Source of the DNA: Squalus acanthias
Lineage: Eukaryota
NCBI GenBank assembly: GCA_030390025.1
Contig: CM059432.1
Coordinates: forward strand, 36,582,001 to 36,646,000
Length of the DNA stretch: 64,000 bases
Reading direction: 5' to 3'
Part shown: piece by piece, positions 9,885 through 63,197 of the stretch
Layout of the letters: the number at the start of each line of letters is the position of its first letter
How positions within the stretch are numbered: the first letter of the stretch is position 1
The notes under the pieces: model-generated
Told to the model about the DNA's origin: nothing
Databases searched by the model: none
The model's input: the letters and a program-made list of their open reading frames with translations, nothing else
Program-made: the position numbers and the translations under genes

Positions 9885-10281
9885 TAAATGTTTTCCTGTG
9901 CCAGATCAAAGCCCTGTTCCCCCAATAGGTCCCCCAATTTGACTTAACGACTTCACACAGTAATGAAACTATGAATTAAACTGCCCATGGAGACAGTCGA
10001 TCAGTCAATTTAAGAGAGAGCTGGGTGTTTTTATTTTTTGTTTGATGAAAGAACTGATTGAGGGGTATGAGTGTGCATAGTATGGAATTTTGAATTTTGG
10101 GACCAGCAAGATCGTTCAGTTGTCCTCCCAGTACTGTTCGCTCTTGTGGAATAATTCCTCATCTTTATCACAATTTCTCAGTCTGTCAGATTTATTTATA
10201 TTTTTAATCACTAGATCAGGCTGGTATAGGAACCAATGACATTTTTGGAGAAAATAGCCTGATTTTATTTTTTGACCTTAG

Positions 10282-10604
10282 GTGAGACAGGTCGTCCAAA
10301 GACTGCTTCCACAACCTCTGTTAGGAGCACTGGCACTACCCCAAGTACGCCGAGCACCCCGCTGGGCACCCCTGGAACACCATCGTCCAACACCGCTCGG
10401 GCATCCAGAACATTGGCACTGAAGACAACGGCTGCTTCGGAGGCCAAGAGGGTTGCACCCATTCCTCGCACGCCTTCAAAACCCATCGTAGCAGCAGCTA
10501 CAAAGCAACTGCGGCCAACCAGTGCCCCCGCTCCAGACCTGAAAAACATCAAGTCGAAAATCGGATCCACAGATAATATCAAACACCAGCCTGGAGGAGG
10601 GAAG
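10282..10604 (+). CDS. MAP4: MAP4 coding exon: proline-rich region plus microtubule-binding repeat R1
   Basis: ttttttgaccttag acceptor; ends [31 protein letters not shown]; canonical tau/MAP repeat with KIGS and PGGG. Confidence 0.95.
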
Positions 10605-15196: not shown

Positions 15197-15319
15197 GCTA
15201 AACCAGTAGAGAAAAGGCCTGAGCCGGTAAGATTGAACCGAAAAGCTGAATCCAGCACTGTAAATCGAGTAGCTAAAACCACAACCACGAAAGATAGCCA
15301 AAAACAAACCAATGGCAAA
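15197..15319 (+). CDS. MAP4: MAP4-specific pseudo-repeat exon (123 nt, phase 0/0)
   Basis: ttgtccatttag acceptor, AAA|GTGAGT donor; AKPVEKRPEPVRLNRKAESSTVNRVAKTTTTKDSQKQTNGK resembles the AKVEKK...AGK insert between R1 and R2 found in MAP4 but not tau or MAP2. Confidence 0.9.
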
Positions 15320-28296: not shown

Positions 28297-28389
28297 GTCC
28301 AGATTGTGAACAAAAAAATTGACTACAGTCATGTGCAGTCAAAGTGTGGCTCCAAGGATAACATTAAGCATGTTCCTGGTGGTGGCAAT
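28297..28389 (+). CDS. MAP4: MAP4 repeat R2 exon (93 nt, counterpart of tau exon 10)
   Basis: tcttag acceptor, AAT|GTGAGT donor; [31 protein letters not shown]. Confidence 0.96.
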
Positions 28390-33252: not shown

Positions 33253-33334
33253 GTGCAAATTCCAAAAACGAAGGCGGACATGGGCCGTGCATCGTCAAAA
33301 TACGGATCCAAGACTAATCTAAAACACAAAGCAG
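33253..33334 (+). CDS. MAP4: MAP4 repeat R3 exon (82 nt, counterpart of tau exon 11), divergent
   Basis: tttttag acceptor, CAG|GTACTA donor; VQIPKTKADMGRASSKYGSKTNLKHKA(G); length and phase 0/1 match the family. Confidence 0.92.
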
Positions 33335-34289: not shown

Positions 34290-34650
34290 GGTGTGGCATC
34301 TTGGACTAGGTTGTGGGTTCACGTCCACTCCAGGATTGGAGCATCTAATCTAGACTGCCTTTCCAGCACCGTGCTGAGGGAGTGTTGCATTGTTGGAGGT
34401 GTTTTCCTACGAATTTGATGTTCAAACTCGGGGCCCATTTGTCTATTCCAGCAGTTAATTTGAAGGAGAGCAGGAAGCTCTCATGGTGTCCTAGCCAACA
34501 TTCCTCCTTCAAACAACACTAACAAAAAAAATGCAATCATTTGTTTTATTACTGTTTGTGGGATGCTGCTGGCGTAGATGGTTGCTGTGCTTTCTACATA
34601 AGTCAGTACCCTTCAAGTATAATTCATTTTGTAAAGAACTTTGAGACACT
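34290..34650 (+). mobile_element. DeuSINE copy
   Basis: gtgctgagggagtgttgcattgttggagg; ggtgtcctagccaacattcctcc. Confidence 0.6.
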
Positions 34651-34821
34651 ACAAATTGAATTCACCTCTCCCCCTCCCAACCTGCCTCATCACTTAAATC
34701 ATCTCTTTCCACCACCGCCCCCCCCCACCCCCCGCATTCAACAGAAGCTGCAAGCAGGTTCTATATCCATCTCTACCTGGCTGCACCCACAACTTCTATC
34801 TGTTTTACTTATGTTTTTGAA

Positions 34822-37775
34822 ATTTATCCTGACAGGAAGGGATAGAGAGTACAAATCTAAGAGTAAATCAACAGATAAGGCTAGAGGTTACAAAAATAAT
34901 AAAAGGACAAAACTAAAGGCTCTGCATCTGAATGCACGTAGTATTCGAAACAAAACAGATGAACTGATAGCGCAAATAGAAATAAATAAATATGATCTGA
35001 TAGCCATTACAGAAACATGGCTGCAGGATGACATAGATTGGGACCTGAATATTGAAGGGTACATGACATTTAGGAAGGACAGGAAGGTAGATAAGGTGGA
35101 GGGGTGGCTCTGTTAATTAATGATGGTATTAGAACAATAGAGAGGGATGACCTAAGTTCAGGAAACCAGGATGTAGAAGCGGTTTGGGTAGAGATGAGAA
35201 ATAATAAAGGCAAGAAGTCACTTGTGGGAGTGGTATACAGGCCCCCTAACAGTAACCACATGGTAGAATGGAGTATAAAGGAAGAAATAACGGGAGCTTG
35301 TCAGAAGGGTACGGCAATAATCATGGGGGATTTTAATCTACATATAGACTGGAAAAATCAGATGGGCAAAGGTAGCATAGATGAGGAGTTCATGGAATGT
35401 TTTCAGGATAGTTTCTTACAACAGCATGTTCTGGAGCCAACCAGAGAGCAGGCTATACTAGACCTGGTATTGTGCAACGAGATGGGATTAATTAATGACC
35501 TCATAGTGAAGGCGCCCCTAGGTAGCAGCGATCATAATATGATTGAATTTTACATTCAGTTTGAGAGAGAGAAGAGTGGGTCCAAGACTAGTATTTTAAA
35601 CTTAAACAAGGGCAATTATGAGGGCATGAAAGCAGAGCTAGCTAAAGTGAACTGGCAAATTAGGTTAAGGGATAGGTCAATAGAGTTGCAGTGGCAGACA
35701 TTTAAGGGGATATTTCAAAATACACAGAATATATACATTCCAACAAGAAAGAAAAATTCCAAGGGGAGGACCCACCATCCGTGGTTAACTAAAAAAGTTA
35801 AAGATAGTATTAAACTTAAAGAAAAAGCATATAATTACGCAAAGATGGGTGGCAGGTCAGAAGATTGGACAGAATATAAAAAACAGCAAAGAATTACTAA
35901 AAGATTAATGAGAGAAAAATTAGAGTACAAGAGAAAGCTAGCTAGAAATATAAAAACAGATAGTAAGAGTTTCTGTAGATATTTTAAAAAGAAGAGTTAA
36001 CAAAGTGAGCGTTAGTCCTATAAAAAAGTGAGTCTGGGGAATTAATAATGGAAAATAAGGAGATGGCAGTTGAATTGAACAGGTATTTTGCATCAGTTTT
36101 CACTATAGAGGACACAAGTAACATCCCAGAAATAGCTGTAAATCAGGAAATGGAAGGGAGGGAGGAACTCAAGAAAATTATAATCACCAGGGAAGTGGTA
36201 CTGAGCAAATTGTTGGAGCTGCGGGCTGACAAGTCCCCGGGTCCTGATGGACTTCATCCTAGGGTCTTAAAAGAAGTGGCTAGTGAGATAGTTGATGCAA
36301 TGGTTTTAATTTTCCAAAATTCCCTAGATTCGGGGAAGGTTCCATTAGATTGGAAAATAGCGAATGTAACTCCTTTATTCAAAAAGGGAGGGAGGCAGAA
36401 AGCGGGAAACTATAGGCCAGTTATCTTAACATCTGTCATAGAGAAGATGTTAGAAGCTATTATTAAAGATGTTATAGCAGGGCACTTAGAAAAGTTCAAA
36501 GTAATCAGGCAGAGTCAACATGGTTTTGTGCAAGGGAAATCATGTTTAACCAATTTATTGGAGTTCTTTGAGGAAGTAACATGTGCTGTGGATAAAGGGG
36601 AACCGGTGGATGTACTGTACTTGGATTTCCAGAAGGCATTTGATAAGGTGCCACATCAAAGGTTATTGCGGAAAATAAAAGCTCATGGTGTAGGGAGTAA
36701 CATATTGGCATGGATAGAAGATTGGCTAGCTAACAGGAAACAGAGAGTAGGCATAAATGGGTCATTTTCTGATTGGCAAGATGTAACGAGTGGTGTGCCA
36801 CAGGGATCAGTGCTGGGGCCTTAACTTTTTACAATTTATATAAATGACTTGGATGAAGGGACCGAAGGTATGGTTGCTAAATTTGCTTAAGACACAAAGG
36901 TAGGTAGGAAAGTAAATTGTGAAGAGGACATAAGGAGGCCATAGATAGGTTAAGTGAGTGGGCAAAGATCTGGCAAATGGAGTATAATGTGGGAAAATGT
37001 GAAGTTGTCCATTTTGGCAGGAAGAATAAAAAAGAAGCATAATATCTAAATGGTGAGAGATTGCAGAGCTCTGAGGTGCAGAGGGATTTGGGTGTCCTAG
37101 TGCATGAATCGCAAAAGGTTACTATGCAGGTACAGCAAGTAATTAGGAAAGCTAATAGAATGTTATCGTTTATTGCGAGGGGAATTGAATACAAAAGTAG
37201 GGAGGTTATGCTTCAGTTATACAGGGCATTGGTGAGACCACATCTGGAGTACTGTGTACAGTATTGGTCTCCTTATTTAAGGAAGGATGTAAATGCGTTG
37301 GAAGCAGTTCAGAGAAGGTTTACTAGACTAATACCTGGAATGGGCGGGTTATCTTATGAGGAAAGGTTGGACAGGCTAGGCTTGTATCCGCTGGAGTTTA
37401 GAAGAGTAAGAGGTGACTTTATTGAAACATATAAGATCCTGAGGGGTCTGGACAGGGTGGATGTGGAGAGGATGTTTCCTCTTGTGGGAGAATCTAGAAC
37501 TAGGGGTTGCCCATTTAAGACAGAGATGAGGAGAAATTTTTTCTCACAGAGGGTCGTGAGTCTTTGGAACTCTCTTCCTCAGAGGGCGGTGGAAGCAGAG
37601 TCTTTGAATATTTTTAAGGCAGAGGTAGATAGATTCTTGGTAAGCAAGAGGGTGAAAAGTTATCGGGGGTAGGCGGGAATGTGGAGTAATCGGATCAGCC
37701 ATGATCTTATTGAATGGCGGAGCAGGCTCGAAGGGCCGAGTGGCCTACTCCTGCTCCTAATTCGTATGTTCGTAT
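34822..37775 (+). mobile_element. CR1 LINE with nearly complete, decayed ORF2
   Basis: APE (NARS, ITETW, GDFN, SDH) and RT ORFs 35104-36000, 36048-36824, 37061-37672; tail ttcgtatgttcgtat. Confidence 0.93.
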
Positions 37776-37848: not shown

Positions 37849-37961
37849 GCGGTGGGGATGTGAAGATCGAGACTGGCAAGGCTGATTTCAAAAACAAAGC
37901 AGAGTCGAAAATTGAGTCCTTGGACAACCTCAACCATACTCCAGGAGGAGGCAACGTGAAG
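37849..37961 (+). CDS. MAP4: MAP4 repeat R4 exon (113 nt, counterpart of tau exon 12)
   Basis: gtttttag acceptor, AAG|GTGAGG donor; [38 protein letters not shown]. Confidence 0.95.
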
Positions 37962-38642
37962 GTGAGGCAGATATGGCAGGGTGGCAGAAACTAGACCAGT
38001 ACAGTGGCTAAAAAAGCATCAACTCGTCACACCAGCTGTGAACAAGGCCTGCGAAACTTCTTCTCCTCTATCTTCTAATTTGCATCTATCTTTGTTCTGT
38101 AGCCTCCCCAGGTTTTTCTCTACCTTTCTCTCCTTTCTTGAGGGTAGTGACTCCCTTGCTGGGTGTGCAGTTCCACAGATGGTGATGGTGACCCTTTGGT
38201 ACCTCACAAAAGTGGCTGTTATGCCTCTGTGAGCCTAGGGGTATGGGGCAGCAAGATAATTAACTGAGGGCATCACAACCAAGCCTGATACTGTCCTCGC
38301 CTAAAGTCTGTACACACGCCCTTCCAGCAATGGAAAGCGATCAGGAGCACTGGCTGATTTTTTTTTTCTCTTTTCCTCCAACCCCTTAACCCAAGGGTGT
38401 TGAAGCTAAATGTAACATCCCTGCCACCACCCCAGCTAAGATCAAACAAATTGCCACACGTTGAACCTATTTGGCTCATACATGCTGTCTTTACCAACTG
38501 AGCCATTTAAGTATTTAGTTCTGCCCCACCCTGCCCCAATCAGCCTCTAGTCTTCCAGGGACATGTACAGTGGGGGAGAAGGAACCAGAAAGGTGGGGGA
38601 AGTTGCTCCTTGGTCCGTGCCAGTCAAAAAGCTCGGCACTAC

Positions 38643-39340
38643 TGTAAGACGTTCTGATTGTCTGACAGTTGATAGAGTTCAGACCCATGGAATAGACAAC
38701 ACAAAACCCAATGAATCTGTGAAACTTCTTTTACTTAAAAATCAACAAGAGGTTACAAGTAATTACCAGAATACAAACTGTACTCAATTCATGTACTTAT
38801 TACAAGCAAGCATCTAAAATCATTTACATTAAGCTCAGGTGATTATAAGCAAAACCACATACACACTATTCACCAGATGAGAGGTCAATTCAACGATGAT
38901 AGACATATGACTAACTTTAACTGGCAACTGACCAGGTCACCATCGACTATAGCCCCGACTGCAGCCCCGAATGTTTTGAAACCTTTTATACCCCAAAGTT
39001 TGGCAACTCTCCCACTGCGTACGTGTCCCTAACTATATGGCATAATGGTCGGCAGTTGTTTCCCAGACCCTCTTATCACTAGTCCGTTAGTCAACTGTGG
39101 GCCTTCAAGGCGAGGTACATTCCATAGTCTGAAGATGTTTCTGTTATTTCACTGATTTCACAGTCAATAGTCTGTTCCCACAGAACTTCAATAAGCTTGT
39201 TTTCCATATCTTTTGAAAGACAATTGGCAGCTTTTACAGCTTACAAGTCAAACAGTTTATTTTGCAAAGTTCTCACAGCAACCAGTCTTTGTCCTTTGGT
39301 AAAATTTGGTCAACTTTTACAGCAAATAGTGTGTTCTACA
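38643..39340 (-). mobile_element. Solo LTR
   Basis: TGTAAGA...TTCTACA termini, perfect 4-bp TSD ctac; TATAAAA and AGTAAA in LTR order on the minus strand. Confidence 0.75.
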
Positions 39341-39869
39341 CTACACAGAACAAATCTTGTCCGCTTGAGCGTCATCCCATCCACCTGCTTAAACATTCAT
39401 TGTAATTTCAGGGTGTCTGTAATGGGAGAGTTAGGTAACCAGAGGGGATGAGCTTCGATGGCTTTTTCTTGCCCCTGACTTTTATTTTCTTGTGATGTAG
39501 CAGGGAGGGATGTACAGCTGTCAAGGAGGGCTGTGTAAACCACTCCCCCACTCCTGGTTTTCTTGCTGAGTAAGAAGAGTTTACTTGGACTTTTATAGGA
39601 CTCAATACCTGAAGTTAACTGTGCTGGTGTGACCACGATCGCTGTCCTACTCACTTGTACAGATTTATTGAGGCTTTGAGTGGTAACCAGGGGGCTAAAG
39701 TTTTGCCACCCTGAGTCGAGCTTTGGGGTAAGGGAGATGAAGTTGGGTGGGGGTAGAAAAGAACAGACCTGGAAGTGTCGGTGGAATGGCGTGCAGGTAA
39801 CGGAGTTTATCACAAGCTTCCATTTTTCTTTTGTATCCAAAATCTCACTTTCACTTCTTTTTCATGAAG

Positions 39870-40172
39870 ATTGAAGCATTAATCAACGACCAATTTTATA
39901 AGCTTGCCCTCCAGTTTGAGATTCTGCTTCAGGGCAGCTGTGTCAGTCTCGCCGCCAGCATCTGTTGTATACGTCGAAGGGGCTCTCGCTGTGATAGTGC
40001 ACTGCCGACTTGTGATACTCCCACCGTCCTGGAACTCCTGAACATAAACACCCCGACGCTCCGGCTGCAGTACACACCCAATATTTGTGCTAGTCTGTAT
40101 GATCCACAGTCAGGCTGCCTGTCTTGCCTGGCTTTCTCGGGTCATGGAGCCGTTTTTAATGCGTTGTCGTAG
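39870..40172 (+). CDS. Candidate alternative terminal exon (100 aa, IEALINDQ...NALS*)
   Basis: About 50 nt AG-free pyrimidine tract, aag|ATTGAA, open in the phase required after R4; non-repetitive sequence; no recognisable homology. Confidence 0.25.
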   Translation: MEALINDQFYKLALQFEILLQGSCVSLAASICCIRRRGSRCDSALPTCDTPTVLELLNINTPTLRLQYTPNICASLYDPQSGCLSCLAFSGHGAVFNALS

Positions 40173-40899
40173 TGCTGTGACTCTCCGAACTGGCTCAGTG
40201 TCAATTCCCAGGTCCACTGCATGTGTAAAAATGTCATGATGTGGGGCATTTGTTCACAACAGGAACTCAGCACATGCACAGTCAAAAAAGATGTCCATTT
40301 TCTGAATCTGCCTCCAACAAGCCTAGGGAGTATTGAGCGTGGGAGAGGGGAACATGTTGTTTTACCTATCTCTTTGATCAAGCTTTTGTTCACCTGCCCT
40401 AATTTCTCCTTATGTGGCTCGGTGTCAAATTTTTTGTCTTTTAATACTCCTGTGAAGCACCTTGAGAGGTTTTACTACGTTAAAGGCGCTATATAAATAC
40501 AAGTTGTTGTTGTTTTGATATTGCTCTGCAGGGATTCATGGGGATTTTTGTGTCCCAAAGTGGCTGCCAGACTCTCTCTCTTCCCTCCTTTCTCCTTCGC
40601 TCCCTATTTATCCCGCTCTGTTTCATTCTTTGAATCTCCCTTCAATCTACAAGCTTTCAAAATCCAATTTTGCCATCAGCTAACTGCTGATTCTCAATTT
40701 GTCTGGTTTCTCCCACTCATTCCTACTCGGCAGTGCCCTAAAGTGTGGACCCTGGCCATTCACCCAGGTTTATCAATAATTTAACAGCTAAGTAGATAAC
40801 CAGGGATACCCAGTAAATAATCGGTTACCCAATGAATAAGCAACAGGAAGAGTCATCAATATTGACATCAGGCAACACCTAACTCTCCAATCTCAGTTC

Positions 40900-42120
40900 G
40901 GGTTCCACCGTACCACTGTATTCTAAACCTCTTCATAGCCTTGATCCAGGTGTGTTTACAAGACCTGAATGCCAGTCCAGGAGAAGTGAGAGTAGCTATT
41001 TTCAACATCAAGGTAGTACTTGGCTAAGTAGGGCACCAAGGAGCTCTACCAAAACTGAGCTCAGTGGGGGTTAAGGGGAAAAACCTTATAGTGGCTGTTG
41101 TCCTGGCACACAGGAAGATGGTCATGGTTGTTGGCGGCCAATCGTCGCAGTCCCAGGACATTGCTCCAAGAGGGTCCTCAGCCCAACCATCTCCAGCTGC
41201 TTCATCAATGATCTTCCCTCCATCAAAGATCAGTTTGCTAATGATTCTTTTGAGTGTTCTTCTCCATTTACAACTCCTATAATAATGAAGCAGCCCATGC
41301 CAGCCTATAGCAGGACCTGGACAACATCCAGAGATTAGCTGATGGCAAGTGGCAGGTAACATTCACGCCACAAAAGTGCCAGGTTATGATAATCTCCTAC
41401 AAGAAAAAGCCCTTGGCCCAATCACCGAGTGTCTCACCATCATCATTCTGGGGGTCACCGTTGAGTGACCAAAAGCTTTGTTGGCTAGCCATATCAACAC
41501 CATGGCTTCAAGAACAGGGTAGAGGCTGGATACTCTGCGACAAGTAGTCACCTCCTGACCAACGTCCCTCATAAGTGGCACTGGCTCTTGCGCAGTCTGC
41601 CTCCCCCAGTGCGCAGCCCATTCAAATTTTTGCACATGTGCGGTATCTACAATAGAAAAGTTGGTGAGCAGCCTGCACCGGACCTTGCAGATGACTGCGC
41701 AGCTTAGCGGGAACGTTGCTCCTGACCCCTCCGAGCCTTTCCACCTTCTACAAGGCTCAAGCCAAGAGTGTGATGGAATGGCCTGGATGGATCCAGCTGC
41801 AACAACATTCAAAGCTTGACACCATCCAGGACAGCAGTTCGCTTAATTTGCACCCCTGCCGTGAACTCAATATCCACCACCGGCGCGCCATGGCTGCAGT
41901 ATGTACAATCTTCAGAATACACTGTAGCAACTCACCAAGATTACTGTGCCAGCCCCATGACATCCACCACCAAGGAGGACCAGAATAGCAATGTCATTGG
42001 AGCACCATCACAACAAGAACTGCTGCGTTCAAGAAGAACACAGTCCATCGCCACCATCTCGGGGCAGCTAGGAATGGGCCTTCACAGTGTCACCACATCC
42101 CAAGAACAAATATTTAATTT
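40900..42120 (+). mobile_element. Heavily decayed Zenon-like LINE with hAT MITE insertion
   Basis: LSTFYKAQAKSVME and KLDTIQD remnants; tail ccacatccc. Confidence 0.75.
41560..41718. mobile_element. hAT-type MITE
   Basis: caacgtccc...gggaacgttg TIRs; perfect 8-bp TSD ctcctgac (41552-41559, 41719-41726). Confidence 0.88.
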
Positions 42121-43859
42121 TTAAAAATACATCATTCAAGGCTCATTCACTCTCTCCTATTAGCTCCGTATATTTATCGTGTAGAATGAAGACCAGACTG
42201 GTCTCCATTCTAAACGAGGAAACTGATCTCACCCGAGGTAGACTAGCCATATTATAGTTAGTCACAGGGCTCGCGGTTCCTGCTCCCGGTCTCTCTCCAC
42301 CGCCCTTTTTTTCTGGAAATTGTGTGGAAGTTGGGTGAAGGTAGGATTGGACTTAAATGTGGTTGAATTGGCTGCTGTCATTCCCTGACGATGCTCCGAC
42401 ATACAGAATGCCCACTTGGGCGAGGTACTGGAGGATGACCCCTCTCATGGAACTGAATTCCAGCAAGAGTCGGTGCCTTCAGGAGAACAGGAAGGAACAT
42501 TGCCAATTGGCGGAGTGGGTGGGGTAAATTTTGCCCAGTGCTATCTGTGTACATGCCCCACCCACCCCTTTGCCTTTGTTCTTGTCCCCTGTCCCTACTC
42601 ACCCAAGACCCAGCTGCTCCTTGGATGAGTTTTCTTTCTTCCCTGTTTCCTTCCCCCACCTCAAATAAAGCTGGCTCTGCAGAGTGTGGGAAGTTGTGGA
42701 GTTTAACCACATCTTGTCCTTTGCATGGACTGAGTTCCTTCACCATCTAGGAGGGCACCTCCCACTCAGGCCGTGTCATCGTCATCGGTCGCCTATCATC
42801 AGAGCTCTTCGTTGACTTGTTCTGTACTGCGGCTGTGTCACATCTTGCAGGTTGTGGAGGCTGTTAGATAATTCAAGGATTAGCTCATCTGTCTTTTGAT
42901 GGCATTTCCTCCATCAAGTGTCCCACTCCCATCCTCCTGTCTAAAGTCGTTGGCACTTTCTGGAGGTGGCCCGGCAACTGAACTGCCACCCAGCACTTGG
43001 TGTTGGCCAGTCACCAGTAATACCGCCTGCTGTCATGACAGTATCTGGTTTTAACACCTGACCTGACCTACTAGGCCGTATCACAAGGTAGAAATCAGCT
43101 CTTTTTTCCTTTCCTTCCCCCTTTCCCTGTTGGTTCAGTGGGAAAATACACTGCCTGGTATAGTACAAAAGCCATACAGATTGGCGAGTTCTAGGTTCAA
43201 TTCACATTCCTTGCTGACGTCATTGATCTGAGGCAGGCAGCAGCCAGAAAGCTAGTTAGCCTCAGTACCCTTGGGCTGAGGAGGAGAAAAATCAGCCACC
43301 GTTCCTGCTGCTGATCACCATCCAGGGACACCTGCTGGAAGGTGCACATAGGTGGTTGAGAACCAGGTAAGGTTTGGTAGTGATGGCTCCGCAGCCGAAT
43401 AGCCTGCTGATATTCGCTCACACATAAATATTGAAAACTTGGGCAAGGTACCTTGAGGAATGTAGGTGGAAGCGTGGTGCCCAAACCCAAGCAAGAGTCC
43501 CATCTTCAGTAGGGAAGAGCAAATTGGAAAAATACATTTAAAATGGATGAAAAATTGCAGTGGGGAAGAGATGTCGTACAGTTTTTTAGTGCACATTTAG
43601 GTTTCCTGTTTGCCAGTTGTTTTCTGAGTGCTCCCGATGTATTTACTGCATTCAGGAATGTTACCATCTTCATGTACCACAGTGTTCTGTTTTTTAATTG
43701 CAGTCGATGTGATAGCATTTTATGTTTCTGCACAGAATCTGTGTCTGCGTAATTTCACTTTAGGAATTACTGTACACACAGAAAAGAGATGGCTTGAATT
43801 TTGACCTTGTGTGTTGTGTCCTTTATTTCACCCCCCCTCCCTTTTTTTGGTCTTTTCAG

Positions 43860-43871
43860 TATTTTGACATG
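43860..43871 (+). CDS. MAP4: Candidate 12-nt in-frame microexon (YFDM)
   Basis: About 70 nt AG-free pyrimidine-rich tract ending ttttcag, then TATTTTGACATG, then GTGAGG. Confidence 0.45.
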
Positions 43872-43908
43872 GTGAGGAAGGAAAATGCACTGGGGAACTA
43901 GAGAGCCT

Positions 43909-44656
43909 GGGCTAGAAATTCGGCCCATTTGTGCCTGCCGTTAGCGCCTCCGGGGGGCAAAGGGCTTATCGCCTGGTGGGGTGTCCAAAAAAACGCCTCC
44001 TGAGAAATTCGGCGGGGCGTTGCTGAGGAGCTATCCGATAGCGCCGCGCCCTCGCCAGTATCGCCTGCGCCGCCAGCGATTATGTCATCGCCGTGCGCCG
44101 CAACCCCTTAGCGCCCTGCCGCGGCCCCTTAATGCCCAGCGGCAGAAATTCATCTGCGCCCCGCGCAACTGCCACGGACGGTGTCAGCGGCAGCCTCGTG
44201 GGTCGCGAGCCGGGCCGACTTCCGCTCGCAGGGCGGTATTTAAAGGGCGAGGTGAGGCTGCGACCCGCGCCGCCATCTATTTTTGGCCGAGCTTCAGGTT
44301 GGCCCTCCGTGGTGTGCCATGGCGTGGTCCTGGCCGCCATTGCGCAGCCTGGCACCGTGTTTCGGTGCCGGGCTGTGGCCGCGGCACCATGCCGCCCTGG
44401 TGGCCTAGTGTGGGCCATCCGAGGCGCTGCAAAGTGCGCAGCGGCCCTCCCCTTTAACTGAAGGGGAGGGGCGTTGAAACGCGGAGCGCTGCCAATCGCG
44501 CCCCAACATCACCTTGGTTACCGCCCCAGCAGGAAGTGGAGCGCCCGAGATTGCGCTCCACTTCCTGTGCGGGGCAGTACTTCAGTGCCGGGCGCTAAAT
44601 GTCCGGCCTTAACTCAGTTACCGCCCCCAAATGGGGCGTAACCGAATTTTGCGCCC
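43909..44656. mobile_element. GC/CpG-rich non-autonomous DNA transposon (PIF/Harbinger-like)
   Basis: Imperfect TIRs GGGCTAGAAATTCGG and CCGAATTTTGCGCCC; internal hairpin aggaagtggagcgc...gcgctccacttcct; TSD unclear. Confidence 0.65.
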
Positions 44657-45169
44657 AGGAGATCTTCACCCACACATCTGATGCTGACGTGCACAGAGTC
44701 TTTCGACTACGTCTTTTGTACTCCCGGAAAGTTTGGCTTTTGCATTGAGTGAATAGGCTCCAACCTTCCTCTCTCTGTCACTACATTTCTCATCTCTGTT
44801 TCTCTTATCAATGCTCTTCTGAACTTTCACACCTTGTTCCTCCTAAGCTTCAAATACCCGAACTGCACACTCCTCCTCCATTCTACATTCTCACCGTGTT
44901 AGAGCAATGAACCTTACTTTTATTTCCTGCTCACTCGTTCTCTTTCTCTCTTCCCCCAACCACCCGCCCCCCCACCCCCCCCCCCCCCCAACACCTCAAA
45001 GCTGTGGACCTCCTTAACCTCCAGTCTGTCTGTCATCCTAAAGTCTGAAAGATTACCTTTCCCTAATCACTGTTCCTTTTATTTGCTGCTTCATCTCTCT
45101 CTCTCTCTCTCTTTTCGACGATGATGCTGTCCATTGTGGCCCTTGGCCCACTACCTCGATCAAGCCCCG

Positions 45170-47232
45170 ATCCATGATTTGAGCACATATTCCAGACTGA
45201 CAACTTCAGTGCAGTACTGAGGGGGTGTTGCATGGTCAGAGATGCCGTCTTTCAGATGAGATATTAAACCGAGGGCCTGTCTGCCATAAATATCCTACGG
45301 CACTATTTGAAGTAAACCAGGGGAGTTCACCTGGTGTCCTGGCCAATTTTTATCCAACATCATTAACAGATCATCTCATCTTTTGTCTCATTGCTTTTTG
45401 TGGGACCTTGCTGTGCGCAAAATGACCGCTGCATTTCCCTACAATACAACAATGACAACACTTCAAAAGCATTCATCAGCAAAGTGATGGAAGGTGTCAT
45501 CGACAGTGCTATCAAGCGGCACTTACTCACCACTAACCTGCTCACTGATGCCCAGTTTGGGTTCCGCCAAGACCACTCGGCTCCTGACCTCATTACAGCC
45601 TTGGTCCAAACATGGACAAAGGAGCTGAATTCCAGAGGTGAGATGAGAGTGACTGCCCTTGACATCAAGGTAGCATTTGACTTAAATAAAAACAGAAAAT
45701 GCTGGAAATACTCAGCAGGTCAGGCAGCATCTGTGGAGAGAGAAACAGAGTTAACATTTCAGGTCGATGACCCTTTGTCAGAACTGGAAAAAGTTGGAGA
45801 TGGAACAGGTTTTTTAAGCAAGTGTAGGGGCAGGGGGAGGGGAGGAAAGAACAAAAGGGAAGGTCTGTGATCGGATGGAAGGCAGGAGAGATTAAGAAAC
45901 AAAAGGGATGATGGTGCAAGGCAAAAGGAGATGGTAATGGGACAAGTTAAGAAACAAAAGATGACTCTAGATGAAGTGTAAATGGCAATGCCAGAATGAT
46001 CGACAGCTGCCATGTGAGAGAATTTGACCGAGTGTGGCATCGAGGAGCCCTAGTAAAACTGAAGTCAATGGGAATCGGGGGGGAAAACTCTCCACTGGCT
46101 GGAGTCATACCTAGCACAAAGGAAGATGGTTGTAGTGGTTGAAGGTCAATCATCACAGCCCCAGGACATCGCTGCAGGAGTTCCTCAGGGCAGTGTCCTA
46201 GGCCCAACCATCTTCAGCTGCTTCATCAATGACCTTCCCTCCCACATAAGGTCAGAAATGGGGATGTTCGCTGATGACTGCACAGTGTTCAGCGCCATTC
46301 ACAACTCCTCAGATAATGAAGCAGTCCATGCCCGCATGCAACAAGACCTGGACGACGTTCTGGCTGGGGCTGATAAGTGGCAGGTAACATTTGTGCCACA
46401 GAAGTACCAGGCAATGACTATCTCCAACAAGCGAGAGTCTAACCATCGCCTCTTGACATTCAATGGCATTACCATCAACGAATCCCCCACCATCAACATC
46501 CTGGGCATCACCATTGACCAGAAACTTAGTTGGACCAGCCACATAAATACTGTGGCAACAAGAGCGGGTCAGAGGCTGGGTATTCTGCAGCGAGTGTCTC
46601 ACCTCCTGACTCCCCAAAACCTTTCCACCATCTACAAGGCACAAGTAAGGAGTGTGATGGAATACTCTCCACTTGCCTGGATGAATGCAGCTCCAACAAC
46701 ACTCAAGAAGCTCAACACCATCCAGGATAAAGCAGCCTGCTTGATTGGCACCCCATCCACCACCTTAAACATTCACTCCCTCCACCACCGGCGTACCGTG
46801 GCTGCAGTGTGTACCATCTACAAGATGCACTGCAGCAGCTGGCCAAGGCTTCTTCGGCAGCACCTCCCAAACCCACGACCTCTACCACCTAGAAGGACAA
46901 GGGTAGCAGGTGCTTGGAAACACCACCACCTCCAAGTTCCCCTCCAAGTCACACACCATCCTGACACCATCGCCGATCCTTCATTGTCACTGGGTCAAAA
47001 TCCTGGAACTCCCTACTTAACAGCACTGTGGGAGTACCTTCACCCCATGGACTGCAGCAGTTGAAGAAGGCGGCTCACCACCACTTTCTCAAGGGAAATT
47101 AAGGATGGGCAATAAATGCTGGCCTTGCCAACGACGCCCACATCCTATAAAAATGAATTTTTTTAAAAATTCATCGGCTTGAAGCGTGTTGGGACATCCC
47201 TGAGGTCATGAAAGGTGGTTTATAAATGCAAG
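45170..47232 (+). mobile_element. DeuSINE split by a Zenon-like LINE (45472-47170)
   Basis: Deu core at 45170-45470; tail resumes at 47170; attcatc repeated at both junctions; RT ORF 46126-47064. Confidence 0.8.
45682..46021 (-). mobile_element. Penelope-like element end with decayed minimal hammerhead ribozyme
   Basis: aaatgctggaaatactcagcaggtcaggcagcatctgtggagagag terminus; 7-bp TSD atttgac (45675-45681, 46022-46028). Confidence 0.7.
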
Positions 47233-47828
47233 GTTTTTTTTCCTTAACTAATCTATCCCCCTTCCCACCCTCACCGATCTGTCCCAATGTCCTTGGGAAC
47301 ACACGACTGGAATAGACCATTTCTATCCGCTGGGTGGGTAGGGGCAATCCAATTGGCCTCAGTACCCCTGGGTTCGGACTGAAAAGAAAATTAGCCAGGG
47401 TTCCCACTCTTGATTGCTGTGCAGCAATTCCTGCTGCAAAGTGGACAGGGGGATATCCGGTGAGGACAGAATCGGGCTTGGCTGTGATGCCTCACATGTT
47501 CAATTGGTTCACCCACACTCACTGCATCCTTGGAGGCGGAACCCCGCAACTTGCAAGGGGTGTGGGGAGAGGAAGGATAGACATATAAAAGCATAAATGT
47601 AGTTTTAACCTGTTACTCTTATTCCTTTCTATACTCTGACTATTCTGGCTCATTCCTTAAGGACGTCTCCTCAGTGACCAAAGATTACTCTCAGTCCATC
47701 AGTGCATTTGATTGTTTGAACCCTGAACATTTTTTTAAAAAATCTCTTGTGTATATATTTTGCATTTCATTTCACGCCCTCCTATAACAATGCACCATTG
47801 TACCCCCACCCCATAATTTTATTTTTAG

Positions 47829-47994
47829 AATGAGGGTGAAGAAGAATCAGAATCAGCAACGATCAGTCAGATTCCAGAAAATGGGGATCTGACAGGACAA
47901 GCTGAGAGTGGCACACAGCAAAATGGAGTAGGGGAGGACCCCACTGCCAGGTCTGACGAAACTCACAGCCAAGAGTTACAAATACAGGAGACAT
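47829..47994 (+). CDS. MAP4: MAP4 acidic C-terminal tail exon (166 nt, phase 0/1, probably alternative)
   Basis: ttttatttttag acceptor, ACAT|GTAAGT donor; NEGEEESESATISQIPENG...HSQELQIQET ends in the QIQET motif typical of MAP4. Confidence 0.9.
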
Positions 47995-49711
47995 GTAAGT
48001 GAAAGCTTGGCCTTCGTGGGGTGTGTCGTTTTGTGAAAAATGTTGACGGTCGGTTGGGAACTAGGTGCTAAAGTGGGCTCGATGTTGGCCTTTCACTCTG
48101 GGAATTGGATTCAAATCAAACCCAGACAGATGGGTTGCAAAATCCCCTCTGTGCTTTGAGCAGTCTCACCCCACTTCCTAATGGGTACAAGCCCACAGAA
48201 GAAAATTGCCCCTAATTCAGTCACAAAAATGTCAATCCGATGGGCCAATAATCAGGACCTGGTACGTACAAAGTAGGCGTCAAATGATTGAGGAAGTTTG
48301 GAATAGGGGTCTTTTATTTAAAATTATTTTGGGGTTTAAAGAAAGTGTATTTTATCTTGCACCCTGTGATATGGATAGGATAAATAATTAGTTGCAAAGT
48401 GTGCTCAAACCCGATCTGAAGCCTCCATTCTCATGGTCTCCAGGATTTTGTGTAAAATCATGAATCATGCTAAGTGCGACAAGTGTAGAAATTCACAGGA
48501 TGTCATGGCACAACAGTCATTTGCTCTAACTATGGGTTTACAAATTGGATTATTTAGCAGTTTATGGGGTTTATGCATATTCACTATTTTTGGTTGAAAT
48601 GCACCCATTCATATTCTCTGGTAATGCACAGAGGCACTTCTTACCTGTTGGCATTGTGAGGACAGAAGATAAATGCAGTGCAAACCAGGAGAATCCGGGG
48701 TTCAATCTCTGATGCGTGCGGAGTTAGCTGATCTAGAACAGGAGAGGAGTAGGACCGGTGCACTTTGCCTCAGCACCCCTATGTTTAGAGGTGAGGGAGA
48801 ATTTGAGGCTGGGGTCTCCTTCTTGATTGTTACGTGGTGCTGGAAAGTGTACATGTGCGGCCATCAGGTGAGGAGAGCATCAATCTCGGTTGTGAGAGTC
48901 AAATACTTTCGATGGTCACAGTCCAGGCTCTCGAATGAGGAATCGCCACTTGGGTGAGGTCCCAGAGTGTGGCTGATGCCCTCACTGTTGAGCTTGATCC
49001 TCAGTGAGAGTCAGTCCCTTCAGGAGAGGGGGATGAAAAAAATTGGAAGAGAATAAAGGAAGAAAATTTAAAGTGCAGAGATGAACGATTTTATTTAACA
49101 TTTTTTGAAATGGTTTTTGCTTCCAGAAGTTATAGTATTACCATAATGTTGAGCTGTTTTAGTATCGGTACGAGTATGGAAATTTTTTATTCTGTCCTGT
49201 TCCCTGGGGTTGTTGGTGGTCTAGCAATCTTTTGGAATGAACTGTGTTTTTGCCCCCTCTTCTCCCGAAGAGGGCTGACTTTTTGCGTACCGTTCCCTTG
49301 GTACCAGCAGCTTTTCCAGTAACTCACCAGTGGACACTTTTCATGTCTGAGCCCTGACAGTGTCAGCAGGCTATTTGACTGTAGAGGGCATCACGGCCAA
49401 TCCTGACCTTGTCTGTACCTGATGTCCACACTTTCCAGCTGGGGTCACTGGCTGATTCCTCCCTTCTCCCTTCTACCCCAGGAGTACTGAGCCCTCCTAT
49501 AGGGCCTCCATACCTCGGCCGTAGCTGATGTAGGTTCATTCAGAATGATCCCACATTGGAATTTCCTGGTCCGTGTGGCTCAGTAGCAGGACATAAGGTG
49601 TGTTTACGAAGCCACTGGGGTGTGAGTGGAGCGATAGGGATTCTGTTCCTAACGAGATGTTTTCACTCTTCCCCCCCCCCCCCCCCCCCCCCCCACCTTC
49701 CTCCTCTGCAG

Positions 49712-49921
49712 ATTGAATCTCGCAAGCTGATGTTCCGTGAGAATGCCAAGGCCAGGACAGACCACGGAGCAGACATCGTGTACAAATCCCCCAACGTTTC
49801 AGACAATACCTCTCCTCTCTGCAGCACGTCACTGACCGAAAGCCTCAGCTCCCTCGGATCTCCGCAGCTTGCTACTCTCGCTGAAGATGTGTCTGCCGCT
49901 CTAGCACAGCAGGGCTTGTGA
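49712..49921 (+). CDS. MAP4: Terminal coding exon with tau/MAP2-type C-terminal tail (frame 0); read as (Y)-stop when spliced after the acidic exon
   Basis: C24 tract plus ctcctctgcag acceptor; [35 protein letters not shown]...[20 protein letters not shown]; strongly similar to tau exon 13 and the MAP2 C-terminus. Confidence 0.93.
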
Positions 49922-51529
49922 ATTTTTTCTTTCTTTTTTTTTGCTCATGTTCTTTTCAAACTACTTTTAACAAAAACAAGAAGTTTAGCATCATTAACAG
50001 GATTTGTGCTTTAAAAAGGACTCGTTCCTATTGAGTTATTTTGGGGCTGGGTAGCTATAATGCACCCTTTTATCTTAAAATTCCACAATACAGATCCAAG
50101 GTACTGCTACCACATGGGACCTTATTGCCGAATAGTTGATAAACTTCCGTTCTTTCGGGATAAGAGCTGGGTTTGATGCTTGAATAGAGCAACCAGTGTC
50201 TGGCACAGCATTTTGGAGACTGAATGGGAGAGTGTATTGGATCATCTGATAGTCAAAATCTGACAGACAGGGGAGGTGGTTATAGTTAATTAAAAACACC
50301 CTAATCCCACTGGCTGCCCAAATATAAATCCTGCCTCCTCAACAAACACTTCACTAAATGAAGGGAATTTTCCCTGCTTTTTTTTTTCTTTTCTAAACTG
50401 CATTTTCCCCATAAATTCTAGAAATTTCCTTGATCTGCACCCTGCCCTTGAAAATCTGATGGCAGTTGTAAATTTAACATTTTTAAAAAAATAAAATAAT
50501 CTTGCCCTTCTGCTGGAGTCTCTAATAACTTGTGAAACTCCAAACCCCATGTTATGTTAAAGGTCACTGTTTTCCAGATTTATTTTCCTCCTTTTTTCCT
50601 GTAAATAAATCATAAATGTCAAAGGAATAGATAATTAGAACAAATTAAATTTGTTCTCACATTAGGAAAGGAGAGGGGCCGGGTGCGTGGGTTAGAGAAA
50701 CACAGATCAGTTTGATTTAAAGGAAAACGGGGATGAATGATGGTGAAAAATCTTCAAACCTTAAAGGTTTGTTGCTTAAGTTATTTTTTTTTAAAGAAAC
50801 TGCAGTCATTATTTTTCCCTGAGAGATTCTGTAATCTTCTGGCCGTGTTTCTCTCGGTGCCAGTCGCTGGATTCTCGTACAGTGTGGCCTGCAGTTCGGG
50901 GAGTTGTTCATCGCTCCATTCACTTTTGTGCATTTTTAATAGAATCTTACAGCACAGAAGGAGACCATTCGGCCCATCGTGCCTGTGCCAACTCTTTGAA
51001 AGAGCTATTCAGTTAATCCCCCTCCCCCACTCTTTCCCCATAACCCTGCATCTCCCTTTAATTCTGTTATGGTTACATTAAATTTGTAATGGGAAGACAG
51101 TAGGATAAAAGAATGAGATCAAATGTCACCTCCACCCAAACGTCTTGATTTTGTTTGGGAGTTAAGCTGAGGTACAAGTGTTGGCAGCAGCTGGTTTGAT
51201 GCTAGGAGTAGAAGACCAAGTGGAATTACTTTAAAACCAACACCCTTAATCTCAGCACGTTTGCTCACCATTGTTTAAACTGAGTTGGGCTGAGGGCAGA
51301 TAGGACTAAAAATAATTGGTACGTAAAATCGTAAACCAGCAGAATGCTTGTGGATATTTTTGCAGTCCAGTGTGTGCACTGTACAGAGATCTGTGGCAGG
51401 TCCAGGAGCTGAATCCATCCGCTTCGACTGAATTTCTGCAGGTTCCCCATTCCCTGAGCTGTCGAGCCATGGGCTCGTCCCTCCCCAGTCAGCATTCTGC
51501 CTTTGGTGAGTGAAGCAGCAACTTAAAGG

Positions 51530-58822: not shown

Positions 58823-59868
58823 AACATAAGAAATAGGAGCAGGAGTAGGCCAATCGGCCCTTCGAGCCTGCTCCGCCATTCAATAAGATCGTGGCTGATC
58901 TGATCCTCACCTCAAATCTAAAGAACACAAGAAGTAGGAGCAGGACCCGGCCACTCAGCCCCTGGGCCCGCTATGCCACCCACAGGGCCTTGACCGATCC
59001 GAACTCAGCCTCATGTCCAATTTCCTGCCCGCTCCCCGTAACCCCTAATTCCCTTTACTTCTAGGAAACTGTCTATTTCTGTTTTAAATTTATTTAATGA
59101 TGTAGCTTCCACAGCTTCCTGGGGCAGCAAATTCCACAGACCTACTACCCTCTGAATGAAGAAGTTTCTCCTCATCTCAGTTTTGAAAGAGCAGCCCCTT
59201 ATTCTAAGATTATGCCCCCTAGTTCTAGTTTCACCCATCCTTGGGAACATCCTTACCGCATCCACCCGATCAAGCCCCTTCACAATCTGATGTTTCAATA
59301 AGATCGCCTCTCATTCTTCTGAACTCCAATGAGTAGAGTCCCAATCTACTCAACCTCTCCTCGTATGTCGACCCCCTCATCCCGGGGATTAACCGAGTGA
59401 ACCTTCTTTGTACTGCCTCGAGAGCAAGTATGTCTTTTCTTAAGTATGGACACCAAAACTGTATGCAGTATTCCAGGTGCTGTCTCACCAATACCTTATA
59501 TAACTGTAGCAATACCTCCCTGTTTTTATAATCTATCCCCCTAGCAATAAAAGCCAACATTCCGTTGGCCTCCTTGATCACCTGCTGCACCTGCATACTA
59601 ACTTTTTGATTTTCTTGCACTAGGACCCCCAGATCCCTTTGCACTGCAGTACTTTCCAGTTTCTCGCCATTAAGATAATAACTTGCTCTCTGATTTTTCC
59701 TGCCAAAGTGCATAACCTCACATTTTCCAATATTGTATTGCATCTGCCAAATCTCTGCCCACTCACCCAGCTTGTCTATATCCCCTTGTAGGTTTTTTAT
59801 GTCCTCCTCACTTTCTACTTTCCCTCCCATCTTTGTATCATCTGCAAACTTTGATATGTTACACTCGC
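58823..59868 (-). mobile_element. Young 5'-truncated CR1, same subfamily as 2742-7165
   Basis: Nearly identical to 2742-3790, including the doubled 3' tail. Confidence 0.93.
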
Positions 59869-60905
59869 TCTGGAGGCACAGTGATATACAGTTGGGAAGG
59901 AGTGGCCCTGGGAGTCCTCAACATTGACTCCGGACCCCATGACGTCTCATGGCTTCAAGTCAAGCATAGGCAAGGAAACCTCCTGCTGATTACCACCTAC
60001 CGCCCTCCCTCAGCTGATGAATCAGTACACCGCCATGTTGAACACCACTTGGAAGAAGCACTGAGAGTAGCAAGGGCACAGAATATACGCTGGGTGGGGG
60101 ACTTCAATGTCCATCACCAAGAGTGGCTCGGTAGCACCACTACTGACCGAGCTGACCGAGTCCTGAAGGGCCTGCGAAAGGTGGTGAGTGAACCAACTAG
60201 AGGGAAAAACCTACTTGACCTCGTCCTCACCAATCTACCTGTCGCAGATGCATCTGTTCATGACAGCATTGGGGTAGCAGTGACCACCGCACAGCCATTG
60301 TGGAGACGAAGTACCATCTTCACACTGAGAACACCCTCCATTGTGTTGTGTGGCACTACCACCGTGCTAAATGGGATAGATTCAGAACAGATCTAGCAGC
60401 TCAAAACTGGGTATCCATGAGGCGCTGTGGGCCATCAGCAGCAGCAGAATTGTATTCCACCACAATCTGTAACCTCATGCCCCAGCATATCCCTCACTCT
60501 ACAATTACCACCAAGCCAGGGGACCAGCCCTGGTTCAATGACGAGTGTAGAAGAGCATGCCAGGAGCAGCACCAGGCGTACCTAAAAATGAGGTGCCAAC
60601 TTGGGGAAGCTGCAACACAGGACGACATGCATGCTAAAAAGCGGAAGCAGCATGCTATAGACAGGGCTAAGCGATCCCACAATCAACAGATCCGATCAAA
60701 GCTTTGCAGTCCTGCCATAATCCAGTCGTGAATGGTGGTGGACCATTAAACAACTAACGAAGGAGGAGGCTCCATGAATATCCCCATCCTCAATGATGGT
60801 GGAGCCCAACACGTGAGTGCAAAAGACACGGCTGAAGCGTTTGCAACCAACTTCAGCCAGAAGTGCCGAGTGGATGATCCATATCAGCCTCCTCCTGAGG
60901 TCCCC

Positions 60906-62058
60906 TGTAGGGGGGGGTGGGAGTGGTGGTAGGGGTCAGCCTTACCCCTGACTCAGTGAGCGGTTCGAATCGCTCCCACGCCCCAGGTTCAGACCTTGGA
61001 CTTATTTAGGGGTTGTGACTAAAGATGCAGTAGACAACAGGTTCCGATGAAAGAATTTTGACTTTTATTAGTAGAAAAAGGTAACAAACTTAAAACACAC
61101 TTAACACTTAAACAGGTTGGGGAACACACGGTACAAGCGAGGGAGAATGACAATATACAAAAAACCCTTATCCCTCCCAAAAACCCCACTATCTAGCTAG
61201 GTTTCGGTTTCAGGAGATCAGGGATAATGCTCACCAAACGGGTTTTAACAGTGCGAAATCCAGCCAGGTAAGTTGATTGCGATGGTGGTCTGGTCGTCGA
61301 GTGTCTTCCTGGAACGTGCTGCTTCTGGAACAGAGCCGAGAGGGAGCTGTGCGAGCGTTGTCAGAGAGTCCAGAGAGAGAGAGAGTCTTGGGGGTTAGGC
61401 CCCCAATTATACTTGTTCAGCCCCTTTGTCCTTTTTGCGCCAAAACCCCTTGCTAAAACGATTTTGTGTTGAAGTGATTTAGGTTTCAGTTGAGGCCTGT
61501 TCATTCCATTGTCTTGGTTCTGCGGGCTTGTTAAGTTTTGATGGGTTTAACTTGGTGTTAAATTGTCCTGAACTCCCTTCTTACTGAACTGTTGTAACTG
61601 CTTGATGGGCCTTCAATTATGCTAAATTGAAGTGGCCTTGTCAGAACCAAATCAAATCCTGGTCATTGTAAGACCTCGTTAACAGTAACGACTTTACTGA
61701 GTGTCAAATGGCTTGCGTCCTGTCGATCTGTTGTTTAATCGGAGTTTGCATTGTCCTCATGTTTTGGGTTTCTTGCTGGGCCTAGCACTCCTATCTTTAT
61801 GCATCTCTTTAATGGGTTCTGTGATAGGTTTTTCTGGTTCCTGTGTTTTGGGTGGGGCTGCCTTCTCCAGGGCCTATTGTCCAAATGTTAATGTTTGCTG
61901 GGGATTGAATTCCAGACATGTCCTTTTAAAATGCCAAAGCTTGGTTTTGGTCTTAAATTCCTTATGTTAGGCCCAAATGCATTTTTATCACTCTGGGGTA
62001 GTTCCAAAGTCCTTTTTCCTTAGATTTTTGGGGATCTGCAAATTTTGGAAACTTTACA
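60906..62058 (-). mobile_element. Solo LTR (1153 bp)
   Basis: TGTA...TACA termini, cccc target duplication, host LINE collinear across it; TATAAT near 61410 and AATAAA near 61065 on the minus strand. Confidence 0.8.
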
Positions 62059-62162
62059 CCCCACCATCACAGAAGCCAGTCTTCAGCCAATTCGATTCAC
62101 TCCACGTGATATCAAGAAACGGCTGAGTGCACTGGATACAGCAAAGGCTACGGGCCCCGACA

Positions 62163-63197
62163 ACATAGAAACATAGAAAATAGGTGCAGGAGTAGACCAT
62201 TCGGTCCTTCGAGCCATTCAATGCGTTCATGGCTGAACATGCTACCTCAGTACCCCATTCCTGCTTTCTCGCCATACCCCTTGATCCCCCTAGTTGTGAG
62301 TGTTATATCTAACTCCCTTTTGAATATATTTAGCGAACTGGCCTCAACAACCTTCTGTGGAAGAGAATTCCATAGATTCACCACTCTCTGGGTGAAGAAG
62401 TTCCTCCTCAGCTCAGTCTTAAATGGCTTCCCCTTAATCCTTAGACTGTGACCCCTGGTTCTAGTTTTCCCTAACATTGGGAACATTCTGCCCGCATCTA
62501 ATTTGTCTAAACCAGTCAGGATTTTAAATGTCTCTATAAGATCCCCCCTCATTCTTCTGAACTCCAGAGGATACAAGTTCAGTTGACCCAATCTTTCTTG
62601 ATATGTCAGTCCGGCCATCCCAGGAATCAATCTAGTGAACCTTCGCTGCACTCCCTCAATAGCAAGAATGTCCTTCCTTAAGTTAGGAGACCAAAACTGC
62701 AAACAATACTCCAGGTGTGGCCTCACCAAAGCCCTGTACAACTGCAGCATCACCTCCCTACTCCTGTACTCAAATCCCCTTGCTATGAAGGCCATCATTC
62801 CGTTTGCTTTCTTGACTGCCTGCTGCACTTGCATTCCCACCTTCAGTGACTGATGTACCATGACGCCCAGGTCTCGTTGCACCTCCCCTTTCCCTAACCT
62901 GCCACCATTCAGGTAATAGTCCGCCTCTCTATTTTTACCACCAAAGTGGATAACCTCACATTTATCCACATTGTACTTCATCTGCCATACATTTGCCCAT
63001 TCACCCAACCTGTCCAAGTCACTCTGTAGCCTCCTAGCCTCCCAATTTAGTGTCATCCGCAAATTTGGAGATATTACATTTAATCCCTTCGTCCAAATCA
63101 TTAATATATAATGTAAACAGCTGGGGTCCCAGCACCGAACCCTGCGGTACCCCGCTGGTCACTGCCTGCCATTCTGAAAAGTACCCATTTACTCCTA
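62163..63197 (-). mobile_element. 5'-truncated CR1 (HER1-like)
   Basis: ORF 62247-63101 RT C-terminus; tail catagaaacatagaaa; acat repeated at both junctions. Confidence 0.92.

Follow-up and report, generated by a model that had tools for sequence, protein, structure and literature searches.

The closest described system is the alternative exon 18 of Map4. Jelen et al. (2007; PMC2014790) reported that in mouse this exon has the Nova silencer NISS2 and that it is excluded in mouse and chicken brain; in chicken it is excluded more in brain than in liver and without the YCAY cluster of the mouse, and in zebrafish only inclusion was seen. According to Preussner et al. (2020; PMC7392665) and the supplement of that paper, the mouse exon has 190 nt, the exon upstream of it has 113 nt, and a second acceptor lies 106 nt upstream, which is the acceptor used in the human row shown there; the mouse skip frame is annotated and supported by RNA-seq, and a peptide from it was detected in brain lysate. 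As a splicing event, the MAP4 switch is already published, in mouse and chicken, as a Nova-silenced brain exon.

The other relevant background concerns the pseudorepeat R' of tau. When residues 369-400 (R') are removed from tau, its off-rate increases by a factor of more than six (Niewidok et al. 2016; PMC5221586), and El Mammeri et al. (2022; PMC9299549) described R' as the highest-affinity microtubule segment of tau. The R' motif in MAP4 is noted in the former paper, the available part of which makes no link to a frame switch. For human tau the available text of PMC9735940 lists, at the corresponding place, only the retention of intron 12 (W-tau). In the literature that we searched, which left outside older papers on MAP4 isoforms and Nova targets and supplements that are figures only, we found no paper that ties the exon 18 switch to R', traces it outside bony vertebrates, or describes a cassette in the last intron of tau, and no binding assay of either MAP4 tail. 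Nothing on a tail switch was found in the available parts of PMC6759874 and PMC12269874, and two other papers were set aside, PMC12974184 because it concerns MAP4K4 and PMC11513531 because it concerns a muscle exon 8. The intact shark tail described below is already visible in database annotations; the parts that appear to be new are the homology of an exon in tau and the link to R'.

Exon anatomy and the frame switch

The window, that is, the whole stretch of 64,000 nt that was examined (C8:36582001-36646000 of Squalus acanthias, GCA_030390025.1, contig CM059432.1), carries on its plus strand the 3' half of a tau-family gene, which was located by tblastn with catshark and skate MAP4 models. 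All features in this section are on the plus strand and are given in window positions. The proline-rich region and the R1 repeat exon of MAP4 occupy 10278..10604 (tblastn with the same models; the start is approximate and the donor was read), followed by the inter-repeat exon between R1 and R2 at 15197..15319, which is matched by chondrichthyan MAP4 models, and by the exons of R2 (93 nt, 28297..28389) and R3 (82 nt, 33253..33334), both placed by tblastn and splice-site reading. The R4 exon (113 nt, 37849..37961) ends in phase 0 at an AAG/GT donor and is joined to 47829 in all four runs of a first set. Every internal exon from R2 onward has AG/GT ends. The acidic, frame-shifting penultimate cassette exon, the orthologue of Map4 exon 18, has 166 nt and lies at 47829..47994. 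When it is included, the first five nucleotides of the last exon (49712..49716) complete a split Tyr codon and are read as far as TGA, and the resulting tail of 56 residues, with 1 K/R and 14 D/E, ends in QIQETY. When it is skipped, the last exon is read in frame 0 as a 69-aa tail that ends in QQGL. This tail consists of R' at 49712..49801 (the equivalent of tau 371-400, with the S396-type Ser-Pro) and, at 49802..49921, a Ser-rich linker with the S404- and S422-type Ser-Pro sites, a helix segment (49865-49918) and the stop. The 3' UTR at 49922..50600 is common to both forms and continues beyond, with AATAAA at 50490 and 50604. The reading of phase, exon length and both tails in the original prediction was correct base for base, and its statement that both stops are within the last exon agrees with RNA-like contigs that run unbroken from 49712 to 50600.

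The last exon is homologous to tau exon 13 and to the last exon of MAP2, and it shares with them R', the terminal helix and the sites of S396/S404/S422 type. The 69-aa tail is identical to human tau 371-441 at 47/69 positions (68%) and has a deletion of 2 residues, as counted manually on the alignment, and Ser-Pro is present at the positions of tau S396, S404 and S422. The alignment thus upholds the claim that the helix and these sites are intact in this species. It had also been stated that the DMVD site of tau is missing from this gene. It is indeed absent, but the loss is not specific to MAP4 because the shark's own tau (NMVE) and chicken tau (NMVD) do not have DMVD either. The region is disordered. 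Whereas the last-exon tail is constitutive in human tau according to the part of PMC9735940 available, it is optional in shark MAP4.

The shark exon resembles exon 18 of mouse, human and chicken Map4 in its gene, in being a penultimate 3n+1 exon after a 113-nt R4 exon, in giving QIQET-x-stop on inclusion and an IE..DHGADIV frame on skipping, and in the motif blocks of its acceptor; the exon start is the same in the alignment of Figure S2 of PMC2014790. It differs from the mouse exon in length (166 against 190 nt), and the shark skip tail runs on through three Ser-Pro sites and the QLATLA...QGL helix, which are lost in mammals. The second upstream acceptor, which gives the ETSI form, is present in tetrapods and is not found among the shark models. 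Third endings from other acceptors were seen as QIQETYDTAVG in horn shark (P0219) and as QIQETSI in tetrapods (P0246, P0433, P0445, P0454). Like the frameshifting penultimate exons of Preussner et al. (2020), the shark exon is 3n+1, places both stops in the last exon with escape from NMD and adds more than 20 new residues, that class being defined by a length that is not a multiple of three, two stops that both fall within the last exon and a gain of 20 or more new residues. Whereas that class exposes a recent proline-rich frame, the "3' UTR frame" of the shark gene is the ancestral C-terminus of the family.

The acceptor region of the cassette (47767..47828) contains five YCAY motifs from -62 to -18 and is a candidate Nova silencer. 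Opossum Map4 exon 18 and the tau cassette described below have motif blocks in common with it. Three blocks at 47780-47814 follow one another as they do in the opossum sequence of Figure S2 of PMC2014790, and this pattern, which was chosen post hoc, matched the window once and 100 shuffles not at all. With the scoring rules of PMC2014790, where the cut-off is 0.6, the YCAY cluster scores 0.9 (log10 assumed), and the five other acceptors that were scored all gave 0. A score this high was, however, also reached by 9 of 116 pseudo-acceptors, and shuffling gave p 0.11. Based on the cluster and the ordered blocks, it is somewhat probable that skipping in the shark is biased to brain and driven by Nova.

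Some further features of the window were observed. A run of about 25 C makes up most of the pyrimidine tract of the last exon (49670-49700), and in the intron before R2 a sequence of about 27 nt is repeated in tandem (27245-27984), the array being open in several frames. Broken LINE-type reverse transcriptase/endonuclease fragments with very high depth fill introns at 2933-6499, 34523-37672, 45367-47064 and 59270-63158. In this assembly the Cys of R3 is changed to Tyr (KYGS) and the Gly of R4 to Glu (KIES); every other chondrichthyan model displayed reads KCGS and K[IV]GS at these places. Since the R4 exon matched exactly in two runs and with a one-base difference in two, this may be a polymorphism by which a KXGS site is lost.

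A candidate homologous exon in shark tau

The original prediction held that the acidic tail arose within MAP4 as a cassette. This was not supported because the last intron of the shark's own tau contains a homologous acidic 3n+1 exon. A scan of this intron (9,534 nt) for open AG..GT exons gave five candidates at two places. The exon of interest has 145 nt and lies on the minus strand (L013:1329-1473, which is G000:C19:5767028-5767172), 1,166 nt before the last exon of tau. It starts in phase 0, and splicing to the last exon would give a T-Y-stop ending as in MAP4. When donor-anchored, ungapped identity to the MAP4 cassette was ranked over 40,402 GT sites in 314 kb, the tau exon came first with 31/50 (next best 26, mean 12.1, sd 3.1), and its acceptor ranked 16 of 42,621. 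A gapped acceptor motif, again chosen post hoc, was found only at the MAP4 and tau cassette sites in the window and 20 loci. Of 5,289 stretches, the tau exon was the best non-self match both to a profile built from 17 MAP4 tails (E 0.055) and to one built from the 12 tetrapod tails alone (E 0.067), and against the 94 stretches of the two paralogue introns the tetrapod-only profile gave E 0.0012.

The rival explanation dates the cassette later than the duplications of the family and places its origin within MAP4; the tau segment would then resemble it by chance or have passed from one paralogue to the other afterwards. In its favour are the weak protein likeness, 12 bits with the MAP4-tail profile and the E of 0.055 given above, the narrow margin with which unanchored DNA tiles place the tau site at the top (88.5 against 83.5 for an unrelated tile), the result that neither the exon scan nor the profile gave a candidate or a cassette relic in the 690-nt last intron of MAP2, and the finding that no tau protein in the database ends in an acidic T-Y tail. 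This explanation does not sit well with the rank of the donor and of the acceptor, with the E of 0.0012, or with a candidate that occupies the same intron on the same strand and shares phase 0, 3n+1 length and the T-Y-stop ending. The tau segment is also single-copy and not a repeat, and it is too diverged to have been transferred recently. We therefore consider an origin inside MAP4 unlikely. The homologous exon in the tau intron implies that the switch likely predates the MAP4/tau duplication, and on these comparisons there is a good probability that the cassette was present before this duplication and was lost from MAP2. A fuller history, for which the chances seem evenly balanced, would be that the single ancestral vertebrate tau/MAP2/MAP4 gene had a Nova-controlled exon that switched R' and the tau tail, that the switch was kept in shark MAP4 and in shark tau, where it would give an acidic-tailed tau without R', that MAP2 and mammalian tau became locked in the "on" state through loss of the exon, and that MAP4 took "off" as its default with decay of the helix.

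Between the paralogues, four-fold sites have diverged far (10/26 to 16/29) yet the splice sites and the frame of the tau exon are intact, which argues that this exon is still in use. If so, it would give a predicted acidic-tailed tau without R'. Only three scattered YCAY motifs (-124, -21 and -10) are upstream of it, with no cluster. Human W-tau (PMC9735940) is like the predicted cassette form of shark tau in that it has no exon-13 tail; it differs in that W-tau, as far as that source describes it, comes from intron retention and ends in a short unrelated peptide, whereas the shark candidate is an acidic exon homologous to that of MAP4.

Two further observations were made on the family. The tau-type exons are divided between C13, with R1 and R2 (43.003-43.009 Mb), and C19, with R3, R4 and the last exon (5.766-5.781 Mb). 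The missing exons were not found in 86 kb downstream on C13 or in 65 kb upstream on C19, and there is a 500-N gap on each side. This separation of MAPT is probably a split in the assembly, and two half-genes is not the favoured reading. Protein P0093 of Lingula closes, past its last repeat, in a short acidic tail that contains the word QEIQS, which recalls REIQS of tetrapod MAP4 and is probably due to chance.

Proposed role of the two tails

Based on the reports on R' and exon 18 and on the anatomy given above, we propose that the shark MAP4 gene is a switch that gives the acidic tail on inclusion and would give the ancestral tau-like tail with R' on skipping, a step that Nova likely drives in neurons; we regard this as likely. 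In most tissues the cassette would be included, and MAP4 would end with a tail of net charge -13 straight after R4, without R'. Such a tail may give a weaker or more spaced hold on the acidic surface of the microtubule. In neurons the cassette would be skipped, likely via Nova, and R' with an S396-type phosphorylation site would be added; in this shark the skip form would also gain the full tau tail. The cassette of the ancestral gene would have been kept by MAP4 and by shark tau and lost by MAP2. By analogy with tau, it is reasonable, with modest confidence, to expect that R' raises the dwell time of MAP4 on microtubules while the net -13 tail lowers it.

A different role has been proposed in general for penultimate-exon frameshifts, and Map4 is in the lists of that paper (PMC7392665, in the parts available). 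Skipping would then be mainly a switch of stability or interaction, through proline-rich destabilising tails, rather than a gain of microtubule binding. Bird and lizard skip tails are in fact now proline-rich. The part that is kept in every lineage, however, is the R' microtubule anchor and not the proline-rich end, the shark skip tail is not proline-rich, and its frame is the ancestral one. It is thus quite unlikely that stability or interaction is the main function.

Use of the tau-like frame, selection and gene identity

Eight of the 24 runs listed were examined as assembled contigs that have no tissue label and whose RNA nature was guessed, but which skip GT..AG introns. In the first set of four, every run had a single contig that leads from R4 through the cassette into the last exon, with the GT..AG introns removed. 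In the second set the cassette and the last exon were on one contig in 4/4 runs, with the R4 end upstream in the three loose ends displayed. The inclusion junctions 37961-47829 and 47994-49712 proposed for checking are thus represented by inclusion contigs in 8/8 runs, and the contigs listed for these eight runs show no skip junction 37961-49712. Since contigs drop minor forms, this means that inclusion is dominant in these runs and says nothing on the absence of skipping.

Skip forms were counted in database models, from partial lists and with RefSeq XP skip models that are predictions and could have been seeded by homology to tau or MAP2 proteins. Within these lists the acidic tail is present in 21 of 22 named chondrichthyans, the model of the whale shark stopping after R4. 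At least 6 of the 22 have skip models with the tau-like tail, each also with an inclusion model, and 15 have only inclusion models among those listed. Among the models listed for other vertebrates, skip models number 6/15 in leatherback, 2/15 in chicken, 2/15 in a gull cluster, 4/15 in a parrot cluster and 3/15 in opossum; they are also present in lungfish and a skink, and none was seen in a caecilian (0/10), two other turtle clusters (0/15 and 0/9), a second opossum (0/6) or quail (0/4). Four unnamed proteins (P0660, P0662, P0665 and P0666) have MAP4-like skip tails that keep R' and end without QGL; they are possibly MAP4 of ray-finned fish, which would imply skipping there too. A tail scan of 1.84 billion representative proteins gave 151 matches, all of them unnamed except six that had already been met in the other searches, and no new tail type.

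The conservation of frame 0 is uneven along the tail. Compared with five other chondrichthyan skip models, R' has 22-23/24 identities and the linker 23-26/27, and R' is 19-23/24 identical in all 12 other MAP4 skip models. The terminal helix has only 11-14/18 in the same five and is broken by proline in three batoids, although that of this species is 16-17/18 identical to five MAP2 rows. Its tail is the least eroded of 13 MAP4 rows, with an end branch of 0 in the tail tree. SPQLATLA is retained in lungfish, only QQGL remains in reptiles and birds, and the end is missing in opossum and mouse; the helix is nearly intact in lungfish and eroding in other sharks, rays and tetrapods. The expectation that the mammalian skip form diverges after the DHGADIV motif agrees with the models and the mouse rows. 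The state of the helix was scored by proline and identity because hydrophobic moments (0.16-0.30) failed to separate intact from broken helices, and the exon lengths in this comparison are 3n+1 by construction and are not evidence.

Although frame 0 is 3' UTR in the inclusion form, it stays open from sharks to birds with its stop at the homologous place. Changes in frame 0 listed for two relatives among the runs were synonymous in 5/8 cases against 25-30% expected (p 0.04-0.08; one list is incomplete), and none of nine indel rows was in frame 0 (p 0.03; several indels are in a T-run). The density of substitutions in frame 0 relative to the UTR did not differ significantly (4/210 against 16/379, p 0.16, one relative's list being incomplete). 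From the conservation of R' and helix, the synonymous excess and the lack of indels, selection is judged to act on frame 0, and its hold is firm on R' and loose on the helix. The earlier claim that the complete tail is under selection therefore stood for R' and not for the helix, which is relaxed.

These data also bear on whether the cassette is effectively constitutive in this species, frame 0 being a decaying relic or splicing noise. The finding of only inclusion in 8/8 runs would fit this, as would inclusion alone in zebrafish, the erosion of the helix in other elasmobranchs and its loss in mammals. A relic would not be expected to have the least-eroded tail of the 13 rows, a helix so close to that of MAP2, R' conserved in every other skip model, a synonymous excess without indels, and skip models in six chondrichthyans. 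A constitutive cassette is thus very unlikely, and it is highly probable that skipping takes place in Squalus acanthias.

The window gene is, by sequence comparison, the shark orthologue of MAP4. Trees were built from R3 and R4 (31 rows), from the same with the tail (31) and from the tail only (29), with Lingula excluded throughout and tunicates also excluded from the tail tree. On R3 and R4 alone the window gene falls together with 12 MAP4 models at 98/90 and, with the tail added, at 99/100, and on the tail only it is in MAP4 at 100/100; the C19 gene groups with tau (95/95 and 95/91), and the window gene does not. The tail-only tree bears out the claim that the tau-like tail was inherited and is not a recent copy from tau. 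The tail matches three loci in the genome, namely, the window on C8, C19 and C3, and in a stricter first search all 4 matches to the MAP2 projection domain PF08377 were on C3 and none on C8. The acidic QIQET-x tail is 45-56/56 identical in 13 chondrichthyans and 21-28/56 in 5 tetrapods named MAP4. On the same strand of C8 are a SMARCC-family gene (PF16496, 37.03-37.05 Mb; SMARCC1 and SMARCC2 were not distinguished) and CSPG5 (PF06567, 37.39 Mb), and MAP4, SMARCC1 and CSPG5 are linked in human. Human MAP4 is also linked to CDC25A and DHX30; no match to PF06617 or PF07717 was found on C8, these searches being lower bounds. The three trees and the SMARCC and CSPG5 neighbours thus confirm the predicted identity. 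A search with a lungfish sequence gave mainly tau and did not reach mammalian MAP4, the 55 PDB matches included tau and one MAP2 chain and no MAP4 chain, and the MAP4 segment fell in the Atlas only in tubulin-binding clusters, all under 0.9.

About 120 kb downstream of MAP4 there is a KANSL1-like gene in tail-to-tail orientation (C8:36750309-36752250, minus strand), and another is placed likewise beside tau on C19; one exon of the C8 gene is 30/33 identical to the KANSL1 beside tau. Together with the C19 and C3 copies, the C8 gene looks like a third KANSL1-family duplicate. Since a gene of this family adjoins both the window gene and tau, it marks a shared ancestral block and is not diagnostic, and these neighbours fit descent from one duplicated block. 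In PMC4815063, as far as its available text goes, MAP4 is the first split and MAPT and MAP2 are linked to KANSL1 genes. That the window gene is a second tau copy, or has a last exon converted from tau or MAP2, as this neighbour and the 68% identity of the tail to human tau might suggest, is largely refuted by the three trees, a 2-residue deletion in common with lungfish MAP4, four-fold sites that match only 16/29 to tau and 10/26 to MAP2, and the SMARCC and CSPG5 neighbours, and is scarcely credible.

If the proposal for MAP4 is true, a single exon under Nova control makes MAP4 tau-like in brain; this could be tested with existing off-rate assays and bears on the redundancy among tau, MAP2 and MAP4. 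The MAP4 tails form a natural decay series, intact in this shark and lungfish, broken in rays, partial in birds and lost in mammals, that separates the role of R' from that of the helix. If the tau candidate is true, shark tau would be a natural tau without the exon-13 segment that, according to the available part of PMC9735940, enters the cores of disease filaments. The exon in the tau intron would also revise the history of the family, in that the acidic end of MAP4 and the end of tau would be two settings of one ancestral switch.
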